From the NCBI GenBank assembly GCA_003344405.1, contig NOWV01000138.1, positions 1 through 64,000 of the forward strand: a DNA stretch of 64,000 bases, read 5' to 3'. The stretch is from Trichoplax sp. H2. Lineage: Eukaryota. A program made the position numbers and the translations under genes. A model generated the notes under the pieces. It was given only the letters and a program-made list of their open reading frames with translations, ran no database searches and was not told where the DNA came from. Shown piece by piece: positions 817 through 27,389 of this stretch (position 1 is the first letter of the stretch; each line of letters opens with the position of its first letter).

Positions 817-1776
817 TTACATACTAGAATGGAATAGATTTTTAACTTCAGATATTATTCCAGCCCTGATTTGTTTATCAAATGTCACGTAAAGAAGTGG
901 ATTCAGAAAATGTATCGATAGGACGAGGCCATTTATAAAATAGTCCACTATAAACAAATAAATGTTACCAGATAAAAGGTGAACTAGGGGTTTTTGAGTT
1001 ATTGAAGCTATAACGCTGAATATAAAATAAGGTAAGCTTAGAAGTATATAACATGAGGTTATATAAATCAGAACTTTAATAAATTTTCTTCTCCTTGTAA
1101 AGTCTTCATGGAGCTGCTCTGATGTCCGAATGCCAGGTCGAACATAATTCTTTTGATAGATTGCAATTTTTGCATAAGACATGACAATCGTTGCAGTAGG
1201 CATAGCATATGAAATAAGTAACCAATGCAACAGATATACTCCTGAATCGACGCTCATTTCTGGAAAATCACATGTTGTAGGAAAATCTGGATACGAAGAC
1301 ACATACAATAACATTATTGATGTTACAGATATTGATACCAACCAAATGAGAATCTCAGTTGTAATCAGAAATCTTCGTTTGTGATTTCGGTAAAATGGCG
1401 AGAATGGTCTTACAATAACAAAATAGCGATCCACAGCGATCAATGCTAAATTCGTCATTGAAACCGCGTATGATGTAAATAAAATCGTTATACCAATACG
1501 ACATAGATTGGAACCAGCGACGAAATCTAAATTACCAAAGGTTATCATAATAAACATGATCAAGGCTGTACTTGCCGAGATAGTATCTGATATAACTGAC
1601 ATTCGAATCAAGCGATAGGTAGTCTTTTGGAATATTTTGTTTGTAGATAGCAGTTTGAGTAGAAGTATATTTAATATTAATCCAGTTGCGTGTGTCGGAA
1701 TAAAAATTCCCACAACATAGCGATAAATTTGTCTTATATTCGGTGGAAATAAGTTTGTCAAATTGAAGGTATTCAT
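817..1776 (-). CDS. Intronless rhodopsin-like (class A) GPCR, 319 aa, copy 1
   Basis: Seven hydrophobic segments; TM1 GLILN, TM2 SVISD, TM3 Cys (NLCR) and DRY, ECL2 Cys (TTCD), TM6 LSLP, TM7 NPLLY. Confidence 0.93.
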   Translation of the reverse strand: MNTFNLTNLFPPNIRQIYRYVVGIFIPTHATGLILNILLLKLLSTNKIFQKTTYRLIRMSVISDTISASTALIMFIMITFGNLDFVAGSNLCRIGITILFTSYAVSMTNLALIAVDRYFVIVRPFSPFYRNHKRRFLITTEILIWLVSISVTSIMLLYVSSYPDFPTTCDFPEMSVDSGVYLLHWLLISYAMPTATIVMSYAKIAIYQKNYVRPGIRTSEQLHEDFTRRRKFIKVLIYITSCYILLSLPYFIFSVIASITQKPLVHLLSGNIYLFIVDYFINGLVLSIHFLNPLLYVTFDKQIRAGIISEVKNLFHSSM

Positions 1777-2879
1777 TCTGTCAGTAACGTAAACGATGGA
1801 TTGATAGATAGCTTGTTATATTTGATGACTAGATAACACCTAGTTTACAATTAAATTTTCGAATATAAATTTATAATATATTCAACAAATAGAGAAGAAA
1901 ATTGCACTTAGCGCCTGAACTGATCTTAGAAAATGATGTTGGATAATTGAATACCAAGTGACTTAAACAGAGAAATAGACTTCATACATTTACCTGAACA
2001 ATCATAAACTAAGGAAATTTTAATAGAAATTCAATAGATCTTATCAAATATTGTAATAACTGTGTTTTATTCAAAATTTATAACTGAGCCATGAAATAAT
2101 TACTATATTATCTTAAAATTTAAGAGAAACTTTTGCTTTCACAAAACCTTATACTATTGTAGTGGTTAATTCTTAAGTTTTACATTTATTTAAATTGTGA
2201 TTACATTTACCACATTAGGATGGGATTCGCTTATTGTGACCTATATTTGTTTCTTATTTTATCTATATCACACGTTATATAATTGCAAATTACAAACCCA
2301 ATCGTATAGAGCAACTAATTAGTACATTTCCATTTAAAGGATGATTTTTCTTGTAGATTAATCTTTTTCAAAAGACATGTTATAAAGGAGCTCTACGTCT
2401 AAGCTAACGCCTACAATAGGGAATTAATGATGAGAACTAGATTTTACGACCGATAGGCTAAATATAGAAGCCTTACTTAACAGTCATTCTGGGTAATTTT
2501 TACATTCCTAGAAAGATATGTAATAGTATTAAACTTTGTACTTTAATATTGCATCTTTTTAATGGTCATAGAAACTCAATAACTGAGTGTACAGATAGAA
2601 CTGACAATGAAAATTTCATATACTAATGGTTGATTCATGATCATTTTGATAGCAGTTTTGCTACTATAAGAATTTGAGTTCTATTCCATTTTGTATACTA
2701 GGTATGATAAATATACAGCATATCTCTCATCACAATAATTTGATAATAACCATAAATTAGCATTTTAAAATTTACTAAAGCGGCAAGAGTGAAACATTGA
2801 AAACAAAATATCGCACCTAAAGTGAATAAAAAAACAACTTTGTTTAAGTCAGTAAACTGTTATAGAAAAATCGAAAAGA

Positions 2880-3240
2880 ATCGCAGATAGAGCCGATTTG
2901 CACGCTCTCAACCAATCAAACTATCTAAAGTGCAATGAAATGAAATATGTAGAAATCAAGCGACACAACTTCTAACAAACTTTGATTCTACTTTCTTAGC
3001 ACTCTAGTCGACTTAACGAAACTTTGGCACCAAATAATAATTGGGGAAACAACCGATCAATAATTTATTTATAAAACGTGAGATAGACAGATCAAACAAC
3101 CTTCCAAATACTTAATTCTAAGTATTATAAATCAAGAAATAAAAAAAGACAGAACTGAAACTGTCAACAACCAAACAACTTAACAAAAAGAAAATTGTTT
3201 TTACTTACAACAATTCGACCCAGAAGGCCTTTAAAATTAA
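2880..3240 (+). mobile_element. Possible decayed GIY-YIG endonuclease fragment (Penelope-like element relic)
   Basis: Hand translation gives YLKCNEMKYVEIKRH (cf. Y..C..C..YVGET.R) and later ENCFYLQQFDPEGL*N (cf. E..WI..L....P.GLN); stops are present. Confidence 0.35.
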
Positions 3241-5401
3241 ACAAGTTCATAAAGTCATAGACACTGAAAATTCTTCTTTACCTGAAATTCGTTAATTTGA
3301 GGGAACAATGAAAATTCATCCAAAAAAATTTAACTTCATTTCCATGTCTTCTGTTTCACAGATTAGTCATATAGATTAATATAAAATGTAATTTATTACG
3401 GTAAATTATGAAATGATAGCGATAATGAAAGCACGATCTTGGTAATATGTGCGTCAGAACAGGAAAATGCAATGTGTGCCGTAGTAAGCTAGTAGATTTT
3501 AAATCCTGTAAGCTATTAAATCAAAATCGCCTATGAGCCTTTCATGATAATCTAAAGATACCAATACTCTTATATAATGGTAATATGAAAAACTTTAATT
3601 TAAATCACCCTTAACTGTTTCAGTATCTTCAATTCATGGTTTTTTTAACAGTTTCTTCAACTTTGAATATTATTATCTCTGTAATCGACATTTTGTAATC
3701 AACTCACGTATCAATATTTGCCTAAACTCTTGTAATGAAGTACAATGAATGTTAACCTAATTCTATAGATATTGGAATTGATAACTTGGGCAAAATAATA
3801 GAGTTTCATAATTAAAAGCCAATTCTGGCCATGGTTATGAAATTATCAGTACAAAAGAATTTTAGCCTAAGCATCACAATGTTGTTTAAAATCCAGCCAT
3901 AATTTATGATAATACATCAATATCGGCATTACTTCCTGTATTCTTGATAATAGTCAATAACATTAGGCAACAAATATTATTTACTTTCACTAGGTTTCAT
4001 TTCTATCACAATCTCCTAATATAGATTTGTAAGTATTGACATCTCCTTTTTTACAATTTTCGCTGTAAAACTGAATGTTAGTTAAATTGGAATTATTTTA
4101 TATTGAAATTATTATAGCATTTTACCACGTCTTTGTATAATTATTTATAGGATTTCCTATTGTAAATTTGAAGCGGCATAAATCCATTTTCTGCAATATA
4201 ATTAACTAAAATTAAGTTCAAGCCATAAAAAAGAATACTTTTTCTCAACTAGATCATAATTATGTTCTACAATACGAATCATTTTACTTAAAATATCTCT
4301 GCTCTTTTATTAATATCAACACTGAAAGGTCCTAGAAACCTAACTATATCAAATATAGCTATCAATATAATCAAATTTATGGAGCATCACCGCAATTTTA
4401 TAGAAGCTAAATCTATTACATCTAAAACATAAAAATTAAATAGAATCATAAAGTAGATGAAGGCTTTTTCATATTATTTTTGAGATGTATTATTCCTGTC
4501 GCTAAGCTGTCAGCATATTGCATATTATAGAATATTAAGCTATCATTTTTCAGGCATTAAATTGATTTAATTGCTTTAAAGAATTGTCTTTCTGTTTGTT
4601 ATTCTTGTTAATCAATGCCTTCTCTATTAATGAATTCCACATTGATAACTATTATCCCCTCTCTGTTACATAGCCTTCATTAACATAAATGCATTTCAAG
4701 ATTTTTTCTAATGTTTGTTAGTAAACCATAAATAATTCGTAGCTTAAAATTTTCTTCGGCTAGGTCCCTAAACCTACTTTAATATTTAAGATGTATTTAA
4801 ATTTGCATGAACTGTACACGTAGTCACTGTTGACTAAATAAGCAAATGTTTAACATAAAACAGCTTTTATCGTGCTAACATTATAATTGCTAATGAATAG
4901 TGTTTTCAGATCATTTTTAATAAACATTTAGCACTTATTCTAGCAGCAAGAGATACTTTCCAGTTAATATCTTGCTTACGATATCACATTAAATGATACA
5001 AAATTAATTTTTTTACTCTAATGTATTACCAAGGGTAAGAGTTTGATTATTACATAGTAAATGGTTCATTTATTGTAGATGAAACTTGAGAATTTGTAAC
5101 TAGTTATGATAATTTATGGATTATCCAAAAAATTATTTGCTGACAATTTTTAGGTAATGTGAAACATGATAAAACTTAGGTTAAAGTCTAATTTCAAATT
5201 TTAAAAATTACAGCAAAGAATGTCATTACTTGAAAATCAGGGTGTACGCCTCATATAAGGATAGTTTGCAAATTTTTATAGAAATCGTAATCTTATTAAC
5301 GTAAGCTAACATTGAAACAATTCAGATCAATTAGTAATGACCTCATCTAATAACGAGCTTGTTCATAGATTGCTGATAAAAGAAAGCGAAGATTAGATGT
5401 A

Positions 5402-6361
5402 TTATTTACTACAATGGAATAGATTTTTAAGCTCAGATATTATTCCAGCCCTGATTTGTTTATCAAATACTAAGTAAATAAATGGGTTCATAAAGTGTAA
5501 CGATAACACCAGGCCTACTACAATATAGTTTAATAGAAATAAATAAATATTACCAGGTAAAATTTGCAAGAAAGGTTTCTGATATGCTGAAGATACAATG
5601 CTACATACAAACAAGGGCAAACTTAGAAGTATGTAACAAGACTTTATATAAATGAGCATTTTAATAAATTTTCTTGTCTTTGTAAAGTCTTTATGAAGCT
5701 GTTTTGATGTCCAAAACTCAGGGCGAACGTAATCCTTTTGATAATATGCAATTCTTGCATAAGACAAGAAAATCATTGTAATAGGGATGACGTATGATAT
5801 TATCAACCAACTCATGAAATACATCGATTGATTAAGGTTTAATTCTGTCATATTGCATGCTGTTGGCAATTCTGGATATGGAGACAAATCTATTAACATT
5901 GGTGATTTTGTAGATATCACAACTAACCAAATGAGAACCTCAGTTATAATCAGAAATTTTCGTTTACGATTCCGATAAAATGGTGATAATGGTCTTACAA
6001 TAGCAAAATAGCGATCTACAGCGACCAATGCTAAATTCATCATAGAAATAGCAAATGATGCGAATAAAATCGTTAAGCTGACACGACGTAGATTAAAACC
6101 AGCGACGAAATCCAGTCTACCAAAAGTAATGATAGTAAACATGATTACAGCTGTAATTGCCGAGATAGTATCTGATATAACTGACATTCGGATCAATTGA
6201 TAGGTTGCCTTTTAGAAATTTTTGTAAGCAAATAGTAGCTTGAGTATAAGTATATTTAATATTAATGCAGTAGTATGTGTCGGAATAAAACATGCTGCAG
6301 CATACCGATAAATCTGTCTAAAATGCTCTGGAAATATGCTGGTCCTATTGGAGATATTCAT
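5402..6361 (-). pseudogene. GPCR copy 2, nonsense pseudogene
   Basis: Same 960-bp span as copies 1 and 3 (ATG at 6359-6361). In-frame TAA at 6212-6214 where the paralogues have CAA (FQ). TM3 Cys is changed to Arg (NLRR vs NLCR). Confidence 0.88.
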
Positions 6362-7699
6362 TCTGCCAATGAGGTAAACGATGGCTTAAAATAGCTTGTA
6401 ATATTTGCTAAGTAGATACTTTCTGGTTTAGAATTAAATTTTCGAATGAAAATTAGAATTTATTCACCGAATGGAAGAGGAAAAGTATAACCAGCGTCTG
6501 AAATTATCTTGGAAAATGATACGCGATATAAAGAGCTTTCACTGCTATTTATTACACCACAATACGCGTATTAATTAATCTACCGTGTGACTCAATACCA
6601 TAAATAAATCACTTCAAATACTGCATGACGCATATATAGAGATTAGGCTATTCAATAGTGCCAAGAATGATCAAGAAGATAGAAGTACAGTAACAATCAA
6701 TTATCTTTTATCGTAATTCAACGCAATTTTTTCCGAGTAAATAATTGAAATAACGTTTTTTGATTTATTTATTTATTCAGTAACCCAGATTGTAAAATAG
6801 TACTTAGAATTCGTTATATCGCATACTATTTCCACACTAAATAAGGTATGATAGCAGTTACATCTACAATATTATTTGGGTCCTAGGAGATCAGAAATTT
6901 TAAGAAGCAACTATGCAAAAATACAGCTGTTAATCTGATAATTAATCAATTCTACCTAGTATGAATTATTGCCGTTACACTTGGAATTCGTTAATTTTAA
7001 TGAGTAATAGATATTTATCAACAGATGTTAATTTCATCTATATATTTACTATTTTCAAGGCTAAATTAGCTAAAATCAATTTCGAAAATAATAAAAACCT
7101 GATTTATTATAAGATATCATATAATACAACGACATAGCAGTGATGATGACCTAGAGCTGACTATGAAATTTCGGGCAACTACTCATATTCAGAAATAGCT
7201 TCTTCATATTCGCCTAGCTCGCCCGCCTTACGTAGCACCAATGTTACTATATGATTTCGCAACATCGGGATAGTTGTGAATAGCGATAATTGGATAATTG
7301 AATATTGGGGGACTTCTTAAGCATAGAAGTAGACTTTGCATATTTCTATGGACAATAATAGACTAAAGAACTTGCAATGGAATTGCTTAATACTATTAAC
7401 GATTAAATAATATTAAATAGTATGGCAACTATATTTTATTAAAAAATAATAATTGATCCGAGTCATCATTAAATAAGAAAATGAATTATTATCAAATAAA
7501 ATTTTAAGACTACTCTGTATTACGTTCAAATTTATAGAAAAACCAATATTTGCAGAATTTTCCATTATTAGTAGTATACGTAAACCGTAAGTTACATAAC
7601 AATTTAATTTTTACTTGGTTTGGCGAGAATACCTGTATGTGTTTGTATAATACAATTATGGTAGATAGGACAATTTCTTAATGAACTTTCTGTAATAGC

Positions 7700-8110
7700 C
7701 AACAGCTCAAAGTTACGAACGTATTTCTTTCTTTATTATACGATCTCGCTACACGGGGAAGATTGCAATTAAGAACCAATAATTGCATTTGGCTGATTTT
7801 TGATACCTGGATATTACCATTTTATACTTGCTCTGACGATAAAATGTAAGATCAAGATTGATGATCATACTGTACAGTTTTGCAACATCAGGATGAATAT
7901 GGCCAATAATTGGCAATAGAATTTCTGAGCGATTTCTTATGCATAGAAACCTTTTCTACATGCATGCATCGGCCATAATAGACAGATCCTATATTGTTAT
8001 CTATTGCAGCAATATTAGGATGATTATGGTCTAAAGCGTATCATTCAATTTTAAGGAATTTTTTATACGCAGCTATGGCCTGATTATGCTTGCTTCTATA
8101 TTGACGGAGG
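7700..8110 (-). pseudogene. Decayed TPR-repeat (kinesin light chain/NPHP3-type, TPR_12-like) gene fragment
   Basis: Minus-strand translation: KHNQAIAAYKKFLKIE*YALDHNHPNIAAIDNNIGSVYYG...SMHKKSLR, frameshift, then LPIIGHIHPDVAKLYS...YRQSKYKMVISRYQKS. About three TPR units with a stop and frameshifts. Confidence 0.75.
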
Positions 8111-8994
8111 CAATTATTTGTGAGACACTTTATTACAAAATCGTATACTCCGAACTGTTTCAAGAATCACGCTCTTAGATGTTAAATTGGACTTTACTGA
8201 AATTGCTAATTGTTATTTTGTAAACTTGACTAAGTTATTTTGGTTGTGATTGGATGTCTACTTTAGTTAGCAAATTGAAATGGTCGCAATTATAAACAAT
8301 CAAGTCATACTACAACAGCTATTTCTACTTCCGCATATTTTACCTGAGCTATACGCGTATTACTTCTAAAATACAAAATTGAGTAGAAATTTAAAATTTA
8401 ATCTAAATTACAAATGGAAGCCTTTCGTTATATTATTTTTTTATGCCTTTTATTTCAATCGTTAAACAGCCAACAGTCTGCAATGCGAATTTAGTCTTTG
8501 ATTAAACAAAATTCCTAAGACATAAAATCAACTTAATTACTGGAATAAAGGTTACACAGTTTTTTTTCTGCTTTTGGTAATTTTTAATGCCTATCTCATG
8601 TAGTAAATAGACAGAGAAGAGATTAATTTAATCAATTATAACTTGTTTTTACTTACTTTATTTTATCAATAAAGAAGAATAACGTATTGGTGACCCTGTA
8701 TATGTTGCAGAGCATGAAAATGCTTAAGTTAAGTTTCAAGTTCATAACTTACGAATAAACAATAAAGCGTTTAGTCGAATTTGATTACACTCTCCTGTAT
8801 TAAACAGGGCATAAACCCATTCTTAGCGGATTTCCATTGAAAATTATAATCTTTTAACGTTGGCTAACATTAAAATAGTTAAGGGCAACTAGTAATGATT
8901 TTATCAAGTGCAATCAATTCCGTATTGTATGAACTGCTACATGTAAACAGTGTATTACGAATTAGTGGTAAAATGAACAAATAAGTTAGATGTG

Positions 8995-9954
8995 CTACTT
9001 GCTACAGTGGAATAATCTAGCTAATTTTGATAACATCCCAGCACGTACTCGCTTATCAAACGTCATATAAATAGTTGGGTTTATAACGGGTAACGATGCC
9101 GCGATAGCTATGGCAAGATAAGCCAATATAAACGTAGATGTGTTACCTACTGACATACTAACGACCGATTTCTGATATATTCCAGATACTGTGCAATTTA
9201 GAGCATGAGGCAAAATTATTATTATATAGCATAATGTTATATAAATCAAGACTTTAATAAATTTCCGTCTATTCCTAAAGTCGTTATCGAGCTGTTCGGA
9301 TGTCCGAATACCAGGTCGAACATAGTTCTTTTGAAACGATATAATCTTTGCATAAGAAAAGATAATGGTTACGATAGGAATGGCATATGCTATAATTACC
9401 CAAAGTATCAGGTATATGGATTGATCAAGGTCCATGTGTGGAAAATCACATGATGTAGGCAAGCCAGGGATCGGAGCAAGATAAAGTATGAAAGGAGATG
9501 TGGCAGATATTGATATAAGCCAAACAAGAAATTCCGTAATAATCAGAAATTTTATTTTATGATTTCGATAAAATGGCGAGAATGGTCTTACGATAGAAAA
9601 ATAGCGATCTACGGCAACCAATGCTAAGTTCATGATGGAAATTGCAGTTGATGAAAATGTAGTAGTAGCTAAGACACGACAAAGATTGGAGCTGACGATG
9701 TAATCTAAATTAACAAAGATTGATATAGAAAACATAGTTGCAGTTGCTGTAACAGATATAACATCCGATATTACAAACATTCGAATCAAACGATAGGTAG
9801 AATTTTGGAAGTCATTGTCTGTGAAAAGTAAATTGAGTAAAACTATGTTCAATATTAATCCAATTACAAAAAGAGGAAGAAAACCCAACCAAATATCGTG
9901 ATAAATCTGTACAAAAAGCACTACAAATGAATTAGTAGTATTGGAAATAGCCAT
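8995..9954 (-). CDS. Intronless class A GPCR, 319 aa, copy 3
   Basis: Seven TM segments; NLCR, DRY, ILPH, NPTIY; collinear with copy 1. Confidence 0.93.
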   Translation of the reverse strand: MAISNTTNSFVVLFVQIYHDIWLGFLPLFVIGLILNIVLLNLLFTDNDFQNSTYRLIRMFVISDVISVTATATMFSISIFVNLDYIVSSNLCRVLATTTFSSTAISIMNLALVAVDRYFSIVRPFSPFYRNHKIKFLIITEFLVWLISISATSPFILYLAPIPGLPTSCDFPHMDLDQSIYLILWVIIAYAIPIVTIIFSYAKIISFQKNYVRPGIRTSEQLDNDFRNRRKFIKVLIYITLCYIIIILPHALNCTVSGIYQKSVVSMSVGNTSTFILAYLAIAIAASLPVINPTIYMTFDKRVRAGMLSKLARLFHCSK

Positions 9955-11791
9955 TCCTTTAGTAAGAAAATAATAAATTGATCGATAATTTGTAATATTT
10001 GGTAATTTGATAATATTATGCTTGAAATTAAATTTTAAAATGAAAAATTGGACTGTAACTGTTTAATAGACGAGAAAATGCGTAGCCAACATTAGGAGAT
10101 ATGGCAGCAAATGATGTATAATGAAAATGATATGCACTATTATTAAATTAAGCTGCAATAGGTATACCAATTGTTTTCCTCCATAAATTCAATACCATAA
10201 ACATTTCACAACATTACCTATACTGCATTAAGCTCAGGTGTTTGTTATTTAATGCTGCTTAAAATGACGGAATAGATTGCGGAAAATTATTAACAATCTT
10301 TTATATATATTGAACGCAACTTATTCTTATTCGTCCATTAACAATCAGCATGGCGGTTTATAATTGGTTTACCCTATGAACAGCATAATAGACTATTATC
10401 GAATAGTCCTTAGAATTGATTCTTTCGCTTGCTATCTCAGTACTATATTAAACATAGGGATATTTCCGTAATTCAATTTACTTTTTCATTACCATTTATA
10501 AAATTGAACTTACGTTCCAGTATATTACAAAAATAGATCCTCATAATGACATCCTTTTAATGTAGCGTAGTGATTCGTATGTAATATAGTACTGTGCACT
10601 TACGTAAAATATGATATAAGAAGCCGATTTAGGTTTTACATTCTAAAGCAGACTTCTGGTACAGTAATATGTTATCTACCTAATACTATAAGATTTATCA
10701 TCTACAGTTCACATAAAAAAATTTAAATCAATAAAGTCGTGTTACGAGTATGTGAAATATTAATGAACTTAAATTGACTATTAAACTGAATAAGTGCATA
10801 AGCTTATCATGCCTCATGAAGAATGTTTACATGGCTCTACAGTATCAGATCTTCTATTTAGGCAATTTGGTATGGAGGGATGTTATTATGGTATAAGATA
10901 GTGCAATCATATAGCTCTAATATTCTAATCGTTTTAATTTCATTTTACCTTTCCGTTTACCGATATAAATCCAAGAAATTCTGTAGTAATATCATATTAT
11001 CGCTTGATATCAATGAACGAAATTAGATATATTAGCAATAGTACTGAACCATGATTTATCAGTCCTTATAATATATCATAGCACATTATAATTTAAGTTC
11101 ATTCCGACACAGATACATTCAAAATTTTAGTTTAAGCGAAATAAAGAATAGTTTTGTACTTGTATTACGACCTCACTTTCTCATATTTTATTCAAACACT
11201 TAAAGTTCCAGTACAATATCTAACATTTTCTATTTTTTTGTATTAATAGTAAAAATTGCAACCATAAATGCGTATCCAAACCAATATGACAATGATCAAG
11301 GTCTAGCAGGTGATGGTTAGTAAATTATTCAAGATTATCGATATTTTCAAATAGTACTATCAATCCTCGAATAATTCTTCCATTATAATTAAAGGGAAAT
11401 TGATTAGACTAAATTACTCAATCTCAAATTTCAGAGACTATACTGGATACTCATGATATTCATTACCATCTAAAGGAAAGAAGTTATAAAAGGGAAGCGC
11501 ATCCTCTCCTGTTTTCAGGGATAATTTCAGGTAAACTGTGATCGTTAGATCAGAAGCAAGAAATTAATGGTTAGAGAATAATACGATTATTACAGCCCAT
11601 AATACAACTACTTGATTTAGTCACTGAATTCACTAAATAGTATTACTAGTAGAACGCATATTCGCTATATTTAGTGCACTGTATGCAATTGCACGTTTTA
11701 TTTTACGATATTATTAGCAGAAAAATGATTAGTCATTACCTAATCTTATTTTTTATCGTAAAAATATTCTTTCCATAAATATTTTTTATAG

Positions 11792-14680: not shown

Positions 14681-14702
14681 GCTTAATTTAATTTAAGCAA
14701 AT

Positions 14703-15063
14703 CTATATGTATACCTACTTATTTATTATAATTATAATTATTGTAGCAAATTTCTATTGCTTACCACTTTCCATTTTGATAACGTGAAGATAACTTCTAC
14801 TCAGATAATCCAAGACAAGTCATTATATTATTCAGTGCAATAGTCCTCTTGGTAAGATCGTTTGCATTTTAGGGATGTTTTTGGTGGCAAACCTATATGT
14901 ATGCCTTCTTATATATTATAATTATAATTATTGTAGCGAATTTCTATTGCTTACCACTTTTCATTTTGATAACGTGAAGATAACTTCTACTCAGATAATC
15001 CAAGACAAGTCATTATATTACTCAGTGCAATAGTCCTCTTGGTAAGATCATTTGCATTTTGGG
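14703..15063. repeat. Near-identical direct repeat, two copies, period ~190 bp
   Basis: ctatatgtat...aacgtgaagataacttctactcagataatccaagacaagtc...ggtaagatc occurs at 14703 and 14892. Confidence 0.95.
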
Positions 15064-15229
15064 GGTTAAGCAACAGTCAATACGGTAAAAGTCAACGCTT
15101 ATTGTGCACTGATTTTCATTTTTCAATCGGGTAATGATTGTTGAAATGTAGAAAATTCCAGCTTAGTAAATGCGTCAAAGTGAAATCGTTGGGATTTTTG
15201 CAACGGTACTACTCAAGCCGTTCGTTCCA

Positions 15230-15935
15230 CTTGGATAAATGATACACGTCTGAAATTGATAATGCTTTGCTTAAAATTTTATTTTGATAATTGTATATAA
15301 TTAAGTATTAAATACACGCGGATAAATGATACAAGTCTTTTAAAAGTTATAATACTTTGCTTAAATTTTACTTTGATATTTATAATGAGTAATAGTTACA
15401 ATACTTTGCTTAAATTTTACTCTGATAATTGCAGATAGTTATTGTACAATGTACATACGCGGGTGAATGATACATATCCAAAACTTACAAAGCTTTGCTT
15501 ACATTTTACATTGATTATTATAATTAGTTTTTGTACGTACGGCAATAAATAGTACACGTATGAAAGTTACAACGCTAAGCTTAAGTTTTAATTTGATAAC
15601 TCTAATTAGTAATACAGTACTGACATTGCTTTGCTTAAATTTTACCCTGATAATTATAATTAGTTATTGTACAATATACCTACGGGGGGGGTGAACGATA
15701 CATATCCAAAAGTTACAAAGCTTTGCTTAAATTTTACTTTGATTATTACAACTAGTCGAGTACACGTTCAAATGAACGGGAACGTTTACTACACAACATA
15801 TTGCACTGAACAAGATTCAGAGCTAGGTTATCAGACTATCTATCAATCCCTTCTCAGTGTGAGATAATATGAGCTGCTTCAGTAAATTTTATTGTATACT
15901 TTGCGTAGATTCTACTTTGATAATTAGTTATTGTA
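15230..15935. repeat. Degenerate minisatellite
   Basis: Recurring ctttgcttaaattttactttgataatt core with gatacatatccaaaagttacaaag variants. Confidence 0.85.
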
Positions 15936-18019: not shown

Positions 18020-18900
18020 GCAAGTCACAGATATTATTTCTAACTTATCATCTTACATTAGTTATGTCATAGTTCTACCAGAAGTTCTAGTACCTTATTA
18101 TAGATGTGGAGTGCCGGTTTAATTCAAATCTGATTAGTCGTTCGAATTATCGTTCGATAGCTTTATTTCTTCATGAATTAAGCTATACTGTTTTCTTGGA
18201 TTTTAAAAGGTCTTTACAGTTATTTCTTCATCAAGATTAATGGCAACTGCTAGTACAACGATTGTTAATGATAGCCCTCTACAAGTTTTACCATCTATAG
18301 ACCTTCCCAACCTAATACAACGCAAAGCTACTGATCATATGGTAGGTTTTCTTTTATTACAGGCAGACTGACTAATTACGGAAAAAGCCATTACTTGATT
18401 GTTACGATTCTAGTCAACGTATTTTGTAGATTAGTTTGTTGTTTTCGTAAATTGTTTATTACATTAGATGATAATCGAATGTGAATTAAATATTTTAATG
18501 ATGATATTTAACTCAGTATCAACATTACTTATTATTTCATCTTGATGAGTTGCTATTAATTAAAGTCAATTAATTGATTTAGTGGTGCTGAGCTTCTAGG
18601 TCCTAGTTGGTCATTAATTGATTTATTAAAAATTAAAGTTGTTTACTGTTGGACTCTATAGTGAGTTATATTATAAATTTTCTGTCTTATTTTATACTAA
18701 TGCAAGTAAATTGTAGAACCAGCATACTTTAGCTATACGCCATAAGTGTATTGCAATTGTATATAAGCTCATATAGCGTTTTGTTTACTCAGTTGCTATT
18801 TCTTAGTTTTGCGATAAGGTCTATACTTTTTGTGTACACTTAGAATAAAATTCATTTAGTTAAACCAGCTTCTAGCCACTCATAATACTTGTGAGTCAGT
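18020..18900 (+). pseudogene. Possible second decayed GPCR remnant
   Basis: LLMIALYKF, frameshift, TIYRPSQP resembles LIAVDRYFVIVRPFSP; flanking sequence is hydrophobic. Confidence 0.25.
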
Positions 18901-20212
18901 AGCTAGTCTAACTTTCGGCACTCCTCCTTAGTTAGTAGAAATCTTTAGGTAGCTAGTAAGGTAGTTTAATAAGATCATATACCAGAAGAGTAAATCGTGA
19001 CATTGATATATTACAAAGCATAGCAGATTCAGTGACTAAAGAAAAGTATTCGTAATATTTCTACAATAGCAATGCAATGACGAACCTTTCAATATTGTTG
19101 ATATTGGTGATATAGTCCACAAGATTAAAATGGTAAGCAGATGATAATAAACCCTGGAATATATCATGTGAAACACAGATAACCAAATTGCACATTTCCA
19201 GTTAGAAAGTGTACAACTACGCTTTAGTCTACTATAACAAAAGACATAGCATTAATCCTGAAGTCAATGCTGATATAATGTATTTATAATAACAGTATTT
19301 AACAATGTCTATTGAGATCGAAGCTTTATAGAAGTATTGATATTTCAGTAAAATAACAAGAAATATCTCAATTGTATTTTTTCTATAACTCTATAACTTA
19401 ACAATTATTCTTCATCTTCTTGATTTGGTATTACAATTATAAATGAAATTGCGAGACATAATTTGACATTTCTTTGTTAAATTTTAGTTTGTAACTGTAA
19501 AGACTTGGTAAATAATAATGCTTTCAATATTGTGCAATATATTTTACTAAAAATTCGAATTCGCAATTTCGTTAAAGATTTTTACAATTGTCAAGTATTA
19601 CTTACTATCTAGAGTTAATGTTAACTACGGTATTTAAGGTTTTTACTATTCTCAACTGGCATAGGAGGTAGGGATCGGTACAAGTGGTTAAAGTTAATAT
19701 ACAACTATCTACTAATCACCACACCCTCGATTACTTAAAAAACGGCCATGTTTTATGTTTAGACTGTCCACAGTTGTAATGTACGAGTATTGTGTGCCTA
19801 ACAATTATTATATTGTACGATAGTAGATTAGTAATAAAGTGGAATTAAGAATCGCAATGAGGTTTCCAACTTACTTAAGCGTAATCCTCGTAAAAACGAA
19901 AATTTTGGTAATAACTTTTATTACATGTCACTAAAAATTAGTCACAAGCATTAGGTCATTTTTAGCAAATGTAAGTTGGTAATGAGATCATGCTAACGGT
20001 AATCTGTAACAATAACAGGTTTATAATATATCAAATTCAGCTAATATTGAATTAAAGTACACATGCAATCGTATTAAATGTATAGCAGCTAGGAACTTAG
20101 TCATGTCCGAATTTTTCGTTGCAAAATATATACAATCTAATAAATTATTACATAGCAGATAATGCCGCAATATTTATACCCCGATTACTATTTAAGTTAC
20201 AAACCTTAAACG

Positions 20213-23200
20213 ATGAATAACTCACTTAAGATCTATGGGTGCACGGGTATTTAAGCGTCGTCAAATGAATAACAAATGCTTTAATCCCATCATACATGAT
20301 ACGTTTTCCAACAGTTGAAGTATTTGAGAACTTAAAGAGTCTTTACAAGTGAGAACTTTCAATGGCAGACAAAAGTTAAAGATTTAGTTACACTAACTAA
20401 TCGAATTGTTAACAGTATAAATGATGAAGTGCAGAATTTTGTTGATATAAACAACTTGATAGCAGATAAAAAGGCATTCACTTTTCCTGAGATGATAATG
20501 TAAAGTTACCTTCTTACATTGATATAAATATACATTTATTATTCTTGGCTATAAATCATGCAGTGGCTTTCTCTCCTGCCTCGTGTACATCCTTATTTTG
20601 GTATGTTCACATTTTAAAACTGAATCTATTCAGATTAAATTCACCTTTAAAATTAATGCATGAATTATATATACTTCTAAAAAACATATTGACTTTGCTA
20701 CTTTCATAACCAGCCCTAAAATGTAACGTTGATAGAGGATTTTTAGCCACTTTACTAGCCTTTGGATTTGGTTTTGAAGGTGTCAGTAAGGTCAGCATAA
20801 ATTTTAATTTTTAACAATTTCAGTATAGATAGTAGAATAGAATTAATCGTATCATGTTATAGTAATTATCATAACTATTTTATTAACGGATTAATTAAAT
20901 ATATCATTTTATGAAGGCTGAAATCGATACAGTTTTGAAAATGGGGGCTTCACCTGAAAAGATTATTTTTGCTAATCCATACAAGCCAATTTCTCATATA
21001 AAGTATGTTTTAATAGAGTATCATGTTTAAAGTAGAAATAAGGTAAATCGTTAATAATATGACGATTTTAATAATATCCATAGTATTATTAAAAAGCGAA
21101 TGTACATGGGCTGAGAGTAAATAAATTAATTAGACTACTTAAATAAATTCTGGGTGTTTAAGATACGCTGCTTATCAAAACGTAAATCTGATGACATTCG
21201 ACAACGTCACAGAATTATATAAGATCAAAGAGTTTTATCCAAAAGCAAGGTGAATTATTTAATACCCTCCTATTAGCCTATAGCACTATATCTCGAAATT
21301 AATACTTTTCATATAACGGCTATCAATGTGAATACATTAGGTTACTTTTACGTTTAAAATTTGATGATCCTAGATCGAAGTATGAAGTAAGTTATTATCA
21401 CTTATTTACGCACGTAGCCTAAAAAGATAGTCATGATCGTATAGTAAGTGTTTTCATGTTCCTTACGATACAGTTGGGTAAAAAATACGGCGTTGAAATT
21501 GATGAAGTTACGCATATACTACAGATAGCGCGCGAGTTACAGCTAAATGTCGTTGGAATTAGGTAAGTATATTAGCAGTATTCAATCAACTATATAGACT
21601 TAAATATTCGATTAATAATTTACAGCTATGTAAACGTTTGGTTAACTGTTTTTTTATCAGCATATAAGAATAACGCAAATTACATCTACTTATTGTTATA
21701 TAATAGCGCGTGCATACCTTCATTTATGGGATTAATAGTTGAGATTGTTATGATTACTTCATTTAGTGTCGATATTGCCTTGTCGATTAATTTATTTGAT
21801 CTATCCACTTGAATTTTCGATAGTTATCACGTCGGTGGCGGATATACCGATGCCTGTAATTTTTTGAAAGCTATAGAATTAGCTAAAACTGCCTTTAATT
21901 ATGCGGTATTCATAAATACATTGACGACTAAATTTTATGATAACATAATACTAAACATGTAGTTTAAGTTTATAATAAATGTCGAGTAGATTTTAATTCA
22001 AATACTTAACCCTCGGAATAACAGAAATCGATAGGAATTAATTTTAATGTTTTGGATATTGGTGGTGGATTTCCTGGCCAAGCAAATTCACTTTTTAAGA
22101 AAGTACGAGGATCTAAATTGACTTAGTTAATAGATCAAGAACGAAATTTTAAATATATTTAGTTTTTCAAATATTTTTGTCTAGATTTGTAGCAATATCA
22201 GCAGCGCTTTAGATAAGCATTTCCCAGTTGAAGACAACATTAGCATTATTGCTGAGCCCGGTAAAACTTCCTTTTTTAAATACCGTTTTAATCTCGATTA
22301 TGATCTAATTTAGCAATCAATTTCTATCATAAACACAGAGCCTAAGAATGGCAATTAATTATTAATCTTAGGCTTTATTATCCTCGTTTAATAGGTAGAT
22401 ATTTCGCGGAAACTGCCTTTACGTTAGTTCTTTGCGTAGCTGGCAAACGTGAAATTTATGAAATTGATCAGAAGATTCCAGTTTATAGTAAGATTCATAG
22501 GAATTATTAGGCCTCATGTAATTGTGCTTTCCAATATTGGATATTTACGGTGGAGTTAATGTGTTGTCGCAATTTAATTGATTGACAATTATAAAACGCT
22601 AGATAAAGGATGTATTAAAAAGAAATTTAGAAATGAGGCCTGTAATAAGGTACGGCAGTAATATCCAAGTCTACAATTAATTCTTGAGTGCAGTAGTAAT
22701 GCTTTGTTTTTGAAATTTTATTAAAGAAAAAGTTTGAATATTACGTCAATGACGGGCGTTATGGATCCTTTTCTGAATTTTTAATGAGCTACGGATGTCA
22801 GTATCCTCAAGTTATCGGAAAGAAATCTGAAACGTTATATTCAACTCGTCTTTGGGGACCCACTGTTAGCGGATCGGATTGTATATTTGAGGAATGCTAC
22901 CTTCCTGAAGTAAGAACTTGTTGTAATATTAAAGACGTGACTTATTGATAAAAATTTGAAAGTATTGATGAATTTGTCGACAGTTACAAGCTCAAGCGAT
23001 AGCATGTAATCAGTCTCAAAAACTTTCTGTATCATCCTTAGCTAAATATTGCTGACAATTACGTAATATTTCTATCGTAACACACTGTAGCTCGAAGTAG
23101 GGGATCTAATTTACTTTGAAGGTAAGAAAAAATTATAATCTTATCAGGAAAGAGACAATACCATAACAAATGTTTTATCGACAATCTTGATAGAAATGGG

Positions 23201-23434
23201 AGCCTATACGACAGTTTTAGGTACTAATTTTAATGGACTTACTAGACCTGTTTCATACTATGTCATTGATCAAGGGATGTGGTAAGACCAGCACTTTCGA
23301 AACTTATTAACGTTTTATCATTACCTGGATTTAGAACTTGTGAAAATCCAGCTTATAATTGAATTTTTAACAGGAACGTGGCTAAACATAAATTATTGAC
23401 AAAATTCAAGGCCGTTGATGAATACTCAGCGTAA
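20213..23434 (+). CDS. Ornithine decarboxylase / antizyme-inhibitor family protein (fold III PLP), multi-exon; 5' exons before 20564 are tentative
   Basis: GT-AG exons give WLSLLPRVHPYFALKCN, IIFANPYK, MTFDN, KKYG, SYHVGGG, LDIGGGFPG, IIAEPGRYF, YYVNDGRYGSF, WGPTVSGSD, MGAYT..GTNFNG; TAA at 23432-23434. Confidence 0.92.
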
Positions 23435-24074
23435 ATAGACACATTTAATTAGATAGAATATGAGAGTATGCATATCCACGAAGGAATTATTACTTAAGCA
23501 TATTATTAGATAAATCACAAATTACAAAGCTAAATACTGCAATGATGAGTGTTGAATTTACGCACGTTATTTCATTTATTCTTAGGTATTACGAAGTTAC
23601 AGTACAATAACAAGGCTAAGATGTAATAATTGCTCTAATGATACCTAAAATATGCAGTATTGTAAAAATAAGTCATTATAATTAGGAGATAAATTAGATG
23701 AGTACATAAAATTTAATATCAGTATGTAATCGTTCTGTAACGCCTAATATAGATGCAGAAGATTTTACTCTGTGAAATATCAGAGCCTATATCATAGACC
23801 TAAACATAATTATTGAAGTTCGCGTACCATGATTGCCAGTAGTATTATTACTGGAAGCAAATAAGCACATATTAAAGAATAAAATGATTGATTATTACTG
23901 GCTACTTTCGGAGAATTTATAATCAGCTCACGCTTCAACATTTGTATAAATCCTTATAACGAAGTACAGTGAGTGTTAATCTGATTGATAGATATGGAAT
24001 TGATAAAATTGGTAAATAATAGAATTTTATAATTAAAAGCGGATACAGTCGGTGATTATGAAGTCATATATGAG

Positions 24075-24330
24075 TATTTTGTCCTAAATATCACTAATAT
24101 TCTTCATAATCTAGCCGTAATTTATTACAATACGTCCTTATCGAATATTACTTCCTGTATTTATGATAATAGCTGATAGTGTTAGACAACAAATACCTTT
24201 TATTATCATTAATAATCATTTCCATTTCAATCTTTTATTGTAAATTTGTAAATGTTAACTCCTGCTATTTGTACAATTTGCCGCTGTAAAACTGAATGTT
24301 ACTTACATCGAAATTATTTCGTATTGAATG
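24075..24330. repeat. Dispersed copy homologous to 3860-4110
   Basis: Shared attacttcctgtatt..gataatag and cgctgtaaaactgaatgtta blocks, in the same order and orientation. Confidence 0.8.
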
Positions 24331-25923
24331 TATTATGTTTCATCCGAAATGTGAATTTCTTCCCTTCAGATTTAGTTATTTAACGTGTTACACAGATTTA
24401 ATTCCCATTAGCTTATCTAGACTTTACAGATAGCCTTACCATTTTTACAATATTATTATTGTAATATTAACATTAATATTGCAGTTCCAATTTGAAATCT
24501 CTGAAGTTGACTATATTTCCCGATTCAATTTCATAAATTTATTTTGTTAGCATGAATACAACATGTTTTCCAAACACCTTTTATTTATGTTTACTTTAGT
24601 AAACCAAAACTAAATGCAATCACGAAATGAATCCTACTTAATGCTTTAATGCAAGCACCATCGATTGATTGATCGTACCACTTCAATAGACATTTTCCCT
24701 ATCAACCTACTCTTATAATCTTCTTAACTATGTCTACAGACAAGCTCAGCAGCTGAGATACTCAGATCAATTCTCCAATCAATACTTTAACTGTATTCTG
24801 CAATGGAATACGTTTATTTCAAAGAGTATTAACACCAACATAAGCTTACTTCCTGAACGACTATCTGCTGTTATGCAGTTGCTTCTTTACTGTGCTACAA
24901 CGATATACTACCAAGGTCCAATGAGTTCAACGACTTGACCTAATACGATACCATAAATTACAAACAGATCTTGAAAGCTAAATCTTCACCTTTATTTTTA
25001 CTCATAAAATTGAATCTACGCTAAATTAAGGAGACGAATGTTGTTAATAAAGAGATGACAGAAGAGTAAATTACATCATATCTGGTGGCCATCGTGATAG
25101 AGAATAACTAAAACTCTAAAGTAATCCTGCTCAATTTATCCAACAGATTAAAAGAAAACTAGAAATAGAAGCTAGAAATCAAGGACCGATTTGAAACACT
25201 CAATCTTACGCTATTGTAAAATATTACAAAAACCATCCATGGTAGAGTCTCTCTTGAATAGCCAAAATGCAGAGAATCATGCTACAGTTCCATCTCATCA
25301 AAACGCGATAATCATTAGACAGATAGATGCAATCTTTCCTTGTTTCGGCTACAATTGAGATCTTATCATACTTACCATTGATCGGCAAGTAGTGATCATT
25401 TTGATGTTATAAGATGATGCAATTCTTGACAACGTAAAATTCTATCACGCACTAAATTAGTAAGATTGTACAGTAAAAAGGCAGGATACAAAATAAAGGA
25501 AATTTATTATGCAGACTTTCAATTCAAACTATTTCTTTATCTACGTTGAGCTGCTTTATTATTTTACACACAAGGTATATCGCAAATCTAGAATTTATAA
25601 TCCCAGCAGCAAAATTTACCTGCAATAATTTTTTTCATACTGTTAGAAAGTATTTTGTCCAATGTCGATGTAGGAAAAAACTTTATAGTAAATATTGCAA
25701 AGTTACTATTACAAACTAGATAGTATAAATGATTTAGATTTCTTCGTTCTTTTTTATGCTAATATTGTAGTCTAGCATTGAGATCATTCCGTATAATATG
25801 AACGAATGTGCACCTTTCAATCGAATTCTTTAACCGACAAGCCTTAACAGATCGCATTTTCATCGTCTATCCATCTAGATAAAAGAATTGTATTTACAAG
25901 GTGTATTATAATTATCGGACCAG

Positions 25924-26470
25924 CTATGCATGCTGGGACTTTAAATGTTGCTTAAGATCTGGCATATGCTTGGGACTATATTTGCACTTATGACATTGCA
26001 AAGGTGAAGCAAGAAAAGATTGATATAATTCCTTATTTAAGCTAATGGATTTTTTCCTTTCCAGTTCTTGTATAATATTGGTTGAAAGCAAAAAGAAGGA
26101 TGTCGTAAATGAATTCCAATGTTTTTTAGTCTTTAAACAATCTGAATTGAAATCTTGGCTGATGACATGAACATGCAATGGAGTCATACTTGGTATAGCA
26201 TGATAGCCGATCCTAAATTCCAGCTTGCCTTGATCATCATTTTTCCCTTGAATTCTGTCGATCAGCTCCTGTGCACGTTGGTGTAAATGTTTTACAAGAT
26301 GTAGATGTTGATCAGCTCGTAATTGTTGTATATTGTTAATATCATCCTTAGGCATGATTAAATAATGATGCTTAGCTTTAGGAAATTTATCTTTAATGGT
26401 GACAGTTAGATCATCTTCTTCTACTTTTAAATTAGGATCTCTGATGGAATCTTTCAACGATAGAAAGGCC
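25924..26470 (-). CDS. APTX: Aprataxin (HIT domain plus C2H2 zinc finger), main exon; upstream exon unresolved
   Basis: IKDKFPKAKHHYL, GYHAIPSMTPLHVHVISQDF, LKTKKHWNSF, CHKC...LKQHLKSQH; acceptor AG at 26471-26472. Confidence 0.93.
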
Positions 26471-27389
26471 CTATTAAACATAACACTGCCATACCGATTT
26501 TTTTTAAATCCACGATAAGACATGATCATAAAAGTAAACAACAAGATCGCTCCACTTCAAAGTCGTTTAGCTCGCAAGAAAACTCGTTAAGATTGAAAGT
26601 TAACCTCTGTCTATCCCATAAGCATTCTTCTTGGCTCGATTGCTTCAAGCAGTACCTTTGCCAACGAGATCTTTCACCAACAGCCTGCCATCTTGCAGTT
26701 GCTGCAGTAGCTCAGCTTCTCCTTTGCATGGCATCTCCAAGCTGAGAAGGCTTAACTGGAACAGTTGTACCGTTCACCCATACAATATCTAATGAAGTTT
26801 TCTCATGTTTGGAGCATCTAGTACTCAATTACCACAATTTTGCTGCTTAACTCGTCGTACGGAATACAGGACGTACAGAACGTTTGACCATAGCATACTC
26901 TAGTGTACGATACAGCCTTGCAGCATGATACAGTAATATAGAGTAAAAGTGTAAACATCGACACCACTAAAGTTGCCTGAAATCGACACCTTCTTCTACT
27001 CTTAACGCTAGCATCGAGCTCATCATTTGTCATCGCTTCTCTTCCTGACAGCCGATGGTGGAAAATTTGGGCGTAGAAATGATCATTCTGCTCCATCAAT
27101 AAGTTTTTTATCCAACTTGCAATCATGGTAATACAATATTGATGAGAAAGAGATTGTAATGTACAGTTGGTAGTCACCGATCGTAGATATGCTTGATTGC
27201 AAATGGCTGAAGAATGATTTGGTTCATTTCTGACTACTTTTAGGTTTATGCAGCTCGGCTACATGAGCGCTATACTTGAATGATTTTATTATCTTTCAGA
27301 TAGTGCTGCTCAAAGTTGTGCAAATCGACCTTAAAAAGCTTGAATCAGTAAGATTTACAGTACAAGTAAACCGATACTAGGACGATAGT

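Follow-up and report, generated by a model that had tools for sequence, protein, structure and literature searches.

The window analyzed here, 64,000 nucleotides of the placozoan Trichoplax sp. H2 (contig NOWV01000138.1, positions 1 to 64,000), contains on its plus strand a gene of the ornithine decarboxylase (ODC) family in which the Cys360-Asp361 pair is replaced by Val-Ser. Spliced alignment gave an unbroken frame of 441 amino acids from ATG 18240 to TAA 23434. Its 17 coding exons are separated by 16 introns, each with GT-AG boundaries. Transcript evidence came from the assembled contigs of four runs, X4, X6, X8, and X9. Of these, X6 is recorded as an RNA run, X8 and X9 were guessed to be RNA and do contain spliced contigs, and X4, which showed zero splice joints, may be DNA. 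Splice joints in the contigs matched 15 of the 16 introns, the remaining intron was backed by a loose end, and a single X9 contig of 2927 letters carried the whole spliced form.

The exon with the likely start codon spans 18210 to 18341, as judged from the joint 18340-19069 and from homology to the N-termini of paralogues, and it is followed by exons 2 (19070 to 19132) and 3 (20564 to 20600), both defined by spliced alignment and contig joints. The original prediction for this locus had let the gene begin at 20564 and therefore missed the coding stretches 18240 to 18341 and 19070 to 19132 as well as a leader exon that ends at 14851. The exon that bears the Val-Ser motif matches TRIADDRAFT_19621 of Trichoplax adhaerens at 100% identity; RDD39368.1 of Trichoplax sp. 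H2 falls into the same sequence cluster and corresponds, from its Met17 on, to the protein described here. The whole protein differs from its T. adhaerens counterpart by only two amino acids, plus one at the start of that model.

The encoded protein belongs to the ODC-like (fold-type III) family, with a barrel and a sheet domain that matched Pfam PF02784 and PF00278 at E values of 4.6e-69 and 6.4e-17. As a single-sequence fold reached a predicted local distance difference test (pLDDT) score of only 39.7, we used an alignment-based model in its place, which had a mean pLDDT of 87.6 and a template modeling (TM) score of 0.90 to human ODC, the top Foldseek match. Residues were numbered via alignment to mouse ODC and the canonical placozoan ODC, and the 20 key ODC residues are those listed in PMC5518511. 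The window gene keeps 15 of these 20 residues, the changed ones being D88E, S200G, D332S, C360V, and D361S.

Along the gene, exon 4 (20714 to 20790) retains Lys69 (20719 to 20721) and carries D88E, C89G, and A90V (20776 to 20784). Exon 5 (20917 to 21002) retains Ala111 and Lys115, carries C114Y, and opens the antizyme-binding element, the remainder of which lies in exon 6 (21163 to 21249), where Ala124, Glu138, Leu139, and Lys141 are kept and positions 125 and 140 are Tyr, versus Lys in AZIN1. Exon 7 (21341 to 21386) keeps Arg154 and has C164Y and R165E, exon 8 (21474 to 21562) keeps Lys169 and Gly171, and exon 9 (21824 to 21905) keeps His197 and has S200G (21837 to 21839). The phosphate loop Gly235-237 in exon 10 (22025 to 22102), Glu274 in exon 11 (22185 to 22260), and Gly276, Arg277, Tyr278, and Lys294 in exon 12 (22395 to 22487) are all preserved, and exon 13 (22603 to 22649) encodes a variable loop with low model confidence. 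Exon 14 (22727 to 22909) combines V322R, N327S, C328E, Y331M, D332S, H333Y, C360V, and D361S with the kept residues Tyr323 and Asp364. The coding region is completed by exon 15 (23091 to 23121), exon 16 (23194 to 23281) with Gly387, Tyr389, and Phe397 retained, and the last coding exon (23374 to 23434; stop codon at 23432 to 23434), after which the 3' untranslated region extends at least from 23435 to 24500, as the 2927-letter X9 contig spans from 23373 to beyond 24500.

Within the motif WGPTVSGSD, the codons GTT (22865 to 22867) and AGC (22868 to 22870) specify the Val-Ser pair. These codons were crossed by X6, X8, and X9 contigs from three studies with 0 other letters, so that TGT GAT was read in none of them, and the T. 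adhaerens orthologue likewise has Val-Ser; this concordance rules out a sequencing error or editing at the site. The other motifs named in the original prediction were also all present in the intact spliced frame, namely ALKCN, FEGVSK (Glu at 20776), HVGGG (Gly at 21837), DIGGGFPG, EPGRYF, and SEFLMSY (22772 to 22792). Among 238 motif matches obtained from 264 fetched proteins, 27 of which had no match, the Cys360 position was occupied by Cys in 227 cases, by Val in 4, and by another residue in 7, and all 4 Val cases belong to the Trichoplax lineage of the window gene.

Lys69 and nearly all cofactor contacts of an active ODC are present (Arg154, His197, Gly235-237, Glu274, Arg277, and Tyr389), as are the dimer interface residues Lys169, Asp364, Asp134, Lys294, Tyr323, and Phe397, whereas Cys360 and the substrate acids Asp332 and Asp361 are replaced by Val, Ser, and Ser, and the pocket is rebuilt by C164Y, V322R, N327S, C328E, Y331M, and H333Y. 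Published work on ODC assigns control of product formation to Cys360 and substrate binding to Asp332 and Asp361 (PMC5518511). Normal ODC activity is unlikely in a protein that has lost the product-controlling residue together with the two acids that hold the amine of the substrate, and we infer from the sequence that ornithine decarboxylase activity has been lost.

The original prediction had focused on this one ODC-family gene. The gene is real, but it belongs to a set of at least 11 paralogues that had been overlooked, and in most of these the pocket is remodeled: genome searches located ODC-family exons on many contigs, and we modeled 11 near-complete loci including the window gene, leaving out four partial ones. 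The canonical ODC (RDD43310.1) that had been proposed as a search target exists at C464 with all 20 key residues, which are also complete in C229a and C479. It shares its exon pattern with the window gene at 48% identity. In a midpoint-rooted tree of 51 rows without verified AZIN rows, the window gene formed a clade with C719, C212a-b, and C148a-d (support 99/97). These eight divergent loci are sister to C464, together with which they are supported at 98/98, and C229a and C479 stand apart. Within the limits of this set of rows, a position inside a placozoan clade with the canonical ODC argues against orthology to vertebrate AZIN1 or AZIN2. About one substitution per site has accumulated since the window gene split from the canonical gene. 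No orthologues from other placozoan genera were found among the best 120 and the best 150 matches.

Asp361 is absent from all eight loci of the divergent clade and Asp332 from seven, and Cys360 is kept in six. As Asp361 was lost throughout while Cys360 mostly persisted, the loss of ornithine binding probably came first, and the Cys disappeared later, on the branch from which the window gene and C719 descend. Six of the paralogues lie in tandem at C148:203000-231000 and C212:156000-167000; they keep Cys360, have lost Asp361, and have mostly lost Asp332, and judged by these residues they are better candidates for decarboxylases with a new substrate than the window gene. In other placozoans, genes of the C148-type orthogroup serve as markers of cell modules, with a score of 0.987 in one. 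Two members of the tandem set deviate further: C148d (C148:228254-228330) has the cofactor Lys69 changed to Gln with Cys360 kept, a defect complementary to that of the window gene, and C212b (C212:163864-164046) has an in-frame TAA, lacks Asp88 and Glu274, and is probably another dead copy. A second, long-branched ODC group (C229:140000-149300, C479, C711, C691, C888, and C998) has all 20 key residues and an altered specificity helix, and is partly repeated on small contigs. Databases currently label all these paralogues ornithine decarboxylase.

The closest paralogue, C719 (C719:391309-395825), is 81% identical to the window gene and is broken in this assembly: one exon is interrupted by an insertion of 463 bases that has a short direct repeat on its flanks, a single base is deleted, and the exchange G276D is present; it is annotated as ornithine decarboxylase nevertheless, and contig C749 duplicates part of its locus. 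The comparison of the two genes over 404 of 441 codons, from which the misaligned first coding exon was dropped, gave a ratio of nonsynonymous to synonymous divergence (dN/dS) of 0.28 as an average of both branches (bootstrap 95% 0.20-0.38; dN 0.10, dS 0.36), and their introns diverge by 0.30. Polarized differences numbered 36 versus 30, with 9 ties, and showed no excess on one branch. As the differences are not concentrated on one branch, both copies were under constraint for most of the time. All 18 listed derived pocket residues are common to both genes, or 18 of 19 if C114Y, which occurs only in the window gene, is counted; as the sites were picked after the alignment had been seen and are slow positions anyway, there is no clean null for this count, and the conservation of the pocket is suggestive only. 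The window gene itself is intact, spliced, and under purifying selection, which largely rules out a young pseudogene.

Published single-cell-type modules place the gene in a narrow context. The T. adhaerens orthologue TriadG19621 scored 0.967 in a module annotated as peptidergic lambda (PMC10580291, supplement 3), and TrispH2_009026, which its orthogroup suggests to be the window gene, scored 0.672 in a module assigned to a putatively secretory cell type of unknown identity (PMC10580291, supplement 3). These cell types differ between the two species, the type of the H2 module being reported absent from T. adhaerens, and the orthogroup consists of these two Trichoplax genes only (PMC10580291). 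An antizyme orthogroup spans all four placozoans sampled, including Trichoplax sp. H2 (PMC10580291, supplement 4), so that the antizyme for which the original prediction had called is on record for this animal (TrispH2_001016), although our own genome searches did not match it. A Pfam search gave 0 candidates with equally empty controls, a vertebrate-type query gave 0 matches, a frameshift-site pattern gave 64 matches, with no antizyme in the 50 loci scanned, and two motif patterns gave 24 matches, with no antizyme in the 17 scanned; these four results are uninformative with respect to absence.

We tentatively favor, at a probability of roughly 0.45, the view that this placozoan ODC duplicate does not synthesize putrescine and serves a secretory cell type as a regulator without catalytic activity, comparable to mammalian AZIN2. 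Its product would bind and sequester antizyme, as AZIN2 does, and this would spare the canonical ODC; the role would be convergent with that of AZIN2 and not due to common descent. As an ODC homologue with 5 of the 20 key residues changed, including Cys360Val, the protein has the replaced catalytic residues that characterize antizyme inhibitors. AZIN2 itself is a Cys360Val protein, as the original prediction had correctly stated, and is abundant in secretory cells (PMC4786150). The five residues of the antizyme-binding element that are conserved in AZIN2 (PMC6313458, PMC4066113) are all present at the matching positions of the window gene. AZIN2 is a monomer in spite of ODC-like interface residues (PMC4066113, PMC6313458), and the kept interface of the window gene is thus compatible with a regulatory role. 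In AZIN1, changes at position 327 to Ala and at position 331 to Ser reportedly raise antizyme affinity (PMC6313458, PMC4066113), and the N327S and Y331M exchanges fall at these two positions. AZIN2 and leucine decarboxylase are thought to have a common ancestor, and the window gene likewise stands among pocket-remodeled paralogues.

Several points weigh against this view. Lys125 and Lys140 confer the high affinity of AZIN1 (PMC5518511), and both positions are Tyr in the window gene, whereas the canonical placozoan ODC has Lys125. The changes at cofactor contacts that mark AZIN1 are missing, Ala111, Arg154, Arg277, and Tyr389 all being ODC-like, which fits a protein that may still hold the cofactor. 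The kept antizyme-binding residues are also kept in ordinary ODCs and do not discriminate. The sharing of 18 of 19 derived pocket residues with an 81%-identical paralogue exceeds what an unused pocket would need, although this is suggestive only. For planarian ODC5, also a Cys360Val protein, a role as antizyme inhibitor is disputed by those who studied it (PMC5574924), and mouse Gm853, another diverged ODC paralogue, proved to be an enzyme. Finally, antizyme and the canonical ODC were assigned to modules other than that of the window gene (PMC10580291), which says little if both are broadly expressed.

The proposal of the original prediction, an antizyme inhibitor or an enzyme with an altered substrate, is partly supported. 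The second of these, which we regard as possible but with the odds against it, is a neofunctionalized cofactor-dependent enzyme: a homodimer holding pyridoxal phosphate that would act on a non-ornithine substrate in the rebuilt pocket (Glu328, Arg322, Tyr164, Met331, Ser332, and Ser361). Without Cys360, it would decarboxylate slowly or divert the intermediate to an aldehyde, and thereby supply a cell-type-specific small molecule. The retention of the cofactor site, with Lys69, Ala111, Arg154, His197, Gly235-237, Glu274, Gly276, Arg277, Tyr278, and Tyr389 kept and D88E conservative, over the distance of about one substitution per site from the canonical gene speaks for this explanation. Known ODC numbering places about 10 of the 16 changes found at 101 family-conserved columns in the lining of the active site. 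The pocket residues common with C719 also point to an enzyme, with the reservation, given above, that the sites were chosen post hoc, and the loss of Asp361 in all eight divergent loci with Cys360 kept in six looks like a substrate radiation. There are precedents in mouse Gm853, an ODC paralogue that became a leucine decarboxylase, and in dopa decarboxylase, which turns into an oxidative deaminase when its protonating residue is lost (PMC7497351). However, Gm853 keeps all 20 key residues (PMC5518511), and the relatives that we fetched nearly all have the Cys.

We know of no active enzyme of the ODC family without Cys360, which counts further against an enzyme. Jackson and colleagues reportedly found in 2000 that trypanosome ODC with a mutated Cys360 is left with little of its activity and drifts to transamination, which has the same bearing. 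A more specific version appears unlikely to us: an ODC-fold enzyme that has dispensed with its protonating Cys would hold the cofactor, accept a new amino acid via Glu328 and Arg322, and release an aldehyde, or an amine so far unknown in these animals, from a peptide-secreting cell type. It would then belong to a radiation of ODC paralogues, each specific to a cell type, that provide an animal devoid of nerves with small-molecule messengers.

It is similarly improbable that the protein is a half-site partner, forming a heterodimer with the canonical ODC or a paralogue in which one site works and one is killed, so that ODC would be tuned without antizyme. The kept interface residues and the complementary defect of C148d (K69Q with Cys360 intact) would suit such an arrangement, and a similar complementary pair has been proposed for planarian ODC5 and ODC6 (PMC5574924), but no other ODC-family gene is listed in the expression module of the window gene in either Trichoplax (PMC10580291), and AZIN2 and Gm853 are reported to form no heterodimers with ODC. 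A weak but otherwise ordinary ornithine or lysine decarboxylase is very unlikely. The best sequence and fold matches are indeed ODCs, ahead of AZIN1 (337 versus 253 bits), and Entamoeba ODC functions despite several pocket changes (PMC3543441); it retains the Cys, however (PMC3543441), whereas the window gene has lost the Cys together with both substrate acids, and C464 already provides a complete ODC. That the gene is a functionless decaying duplicate is hardly credible, for although the broken C719, the in-frame stop of C212b, and the two-gene orthogroup (PMC10580291) indicate a high turnover of the family, the frame is intact and fully spliced, dN/dS is low, expression is confined to a tight module, and the T. 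adhaerens protein is nearly identical.

If the protein binds antizyme, as in the regulatory view that we favor, the exchange Cys360Val would have led to a secretory-cell antizyme inhibitor independently in placozoans and in mammals, and the three-part circuit of ODC, antizyme, and inhibitor would operate in an animal that has no neurons. As an enzyme, the protein would be active although it lacks the near-universal Cys of its family, and it would generate a new small molecule in the secretory cells of placozoans. In both cases, the family offers a compact test set that consists of the canonical ODC, paralogues that keep the Cys without the substrate acids, the Cys-less window gene, and the Lys-less C148d, and the cell-type restriction together with this testable series of paralogues adds to the value of the gene.

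Upstream of the coding region, a 5' leader exon (14791 to 14851, plus strand; 5' end not fixed) was mapped by loose ends of 50-60 letters that precede 18209 in X8 and X9 contigs, and its 3' end at 14851 has a GT donor. The spliced leader together with 18210 to 18239 has no ATG, is open in the coding frame, and includes a hydrophobic run; if translation began in a further exon upstream or at a non-AUG codon, the protein would gain a membrane anchor there. A mitochondrial or signal peptide was considered and rejected: the database model of the paralogue has an N-terminal extension, but the window does not conserve the ATG from which this extension starts. Coding status of the stretch before ATG 18240 was also dropped, because its divergence from the paralogue, judged by eye, is about at the intron level and the leader has no ATG. 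The leader exon and its donor are included in a 178-base tandem duplication (14697 to 15064, 95% alike), after which seven degenerate copies of a short repeat lie in the first intron (15233 to 15926).

Elsewhere in the window, three intronless frames on the minus strand at 817 to 10062 resemble seven-helix receptors by eye, and an aprataxin-like gene with HIT and zinc-finger domains lies at 25924 to 26556. Outside the window, the genome searches also met an intronless diaminopimelate decarboxylase (lysA) frame above the NCBIfam cut-off on the minus strand of a 416 kb contig (C663:72757-73968); lysA in Trichoplax has reportedly been described before as a transfer from bacteria.

In literature searches that combined Trichoplax or Placozoa with ornithine decarboxylase or antizyme, we found by title and abstract no paper on the window gene; most subscription journals were outside the coverage, and Ivanov et al. 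2010 may list it. Nor did the gene appear in the accessible portions of PMC6411801, PMC1874602, PMC12013895, and bioRxiv 10.1101/2025.04.18.649542. The description as a new polyamine-control component in the original prediction overstated the novelty, as inactive ODC homologues are reported to have had repeated origins, with expansions in several invertebrates (PMC5574924, reporting Ivanov et al. 2010), and planarian ODC5 is a known Cys360Val protein (PMC5574924).

Compared with eukaryotic ODC (mouse 7odc, human 1d7k), the protein has both domains, the fold, and most key residues in common, and differs by C360V, D361S, D332S, D88E, and S200G and by the pocket changes C164Y, V322R, N327S, C328E, and Y331M. 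With mouse leucine decarboxylase (Gm853, ODCrp), it has in common the origin as an ODC paralogue, the loss of ornithine activity, which is predicted here, and a narrow expression, whereas Gm853 has all 20 key residues including the Cys (PMC5518511) and the window gene 15. AZIN1 (3btn, 4zgz) resembles it as an ODC fold that, in our case presumably, is devoid of ODC chemistry, with positions 327 and 331 changed, but in AZIN1 Cys360 and Asp361 mostly persist and the contacts to the cofactor and within the dimer are lost, while in the window gene the pattern is the opposite and Lys125 and Lys140 are absent. Planarian ODC5 (Dugesia, Schmidtea) is likewise an invertebrate Cys360Val paralogue from an expanded family beside one canonical ODC, with restricted expression (PMC5574924); it belongs to a separate lineage, and its knock-down phenotype was judged independent of putrescine and antizyme by its authors (PMC5574924), whereas the placozoan gene is known from sequence and expression. 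The closest parallel in function may be mammalian AZIN2 (ODCp), with which the window gene shares Cys360Val, an ODC-like interface, the five antizyme-binding residues, and expression in secretory cells. AZIN2 arose just before the mammalian radiation, and AZIN1 and AZIN2 were dated to vertebrates (PMC2811004), whereas the window gene is nested among placozoan paralogues, without Lys125, and has an independent origin. It is an independently evolved ODC homologue that has probably lost ODC activity, with a Cys360Val exchange that was already known from AZIN2 and planarian ODC5.

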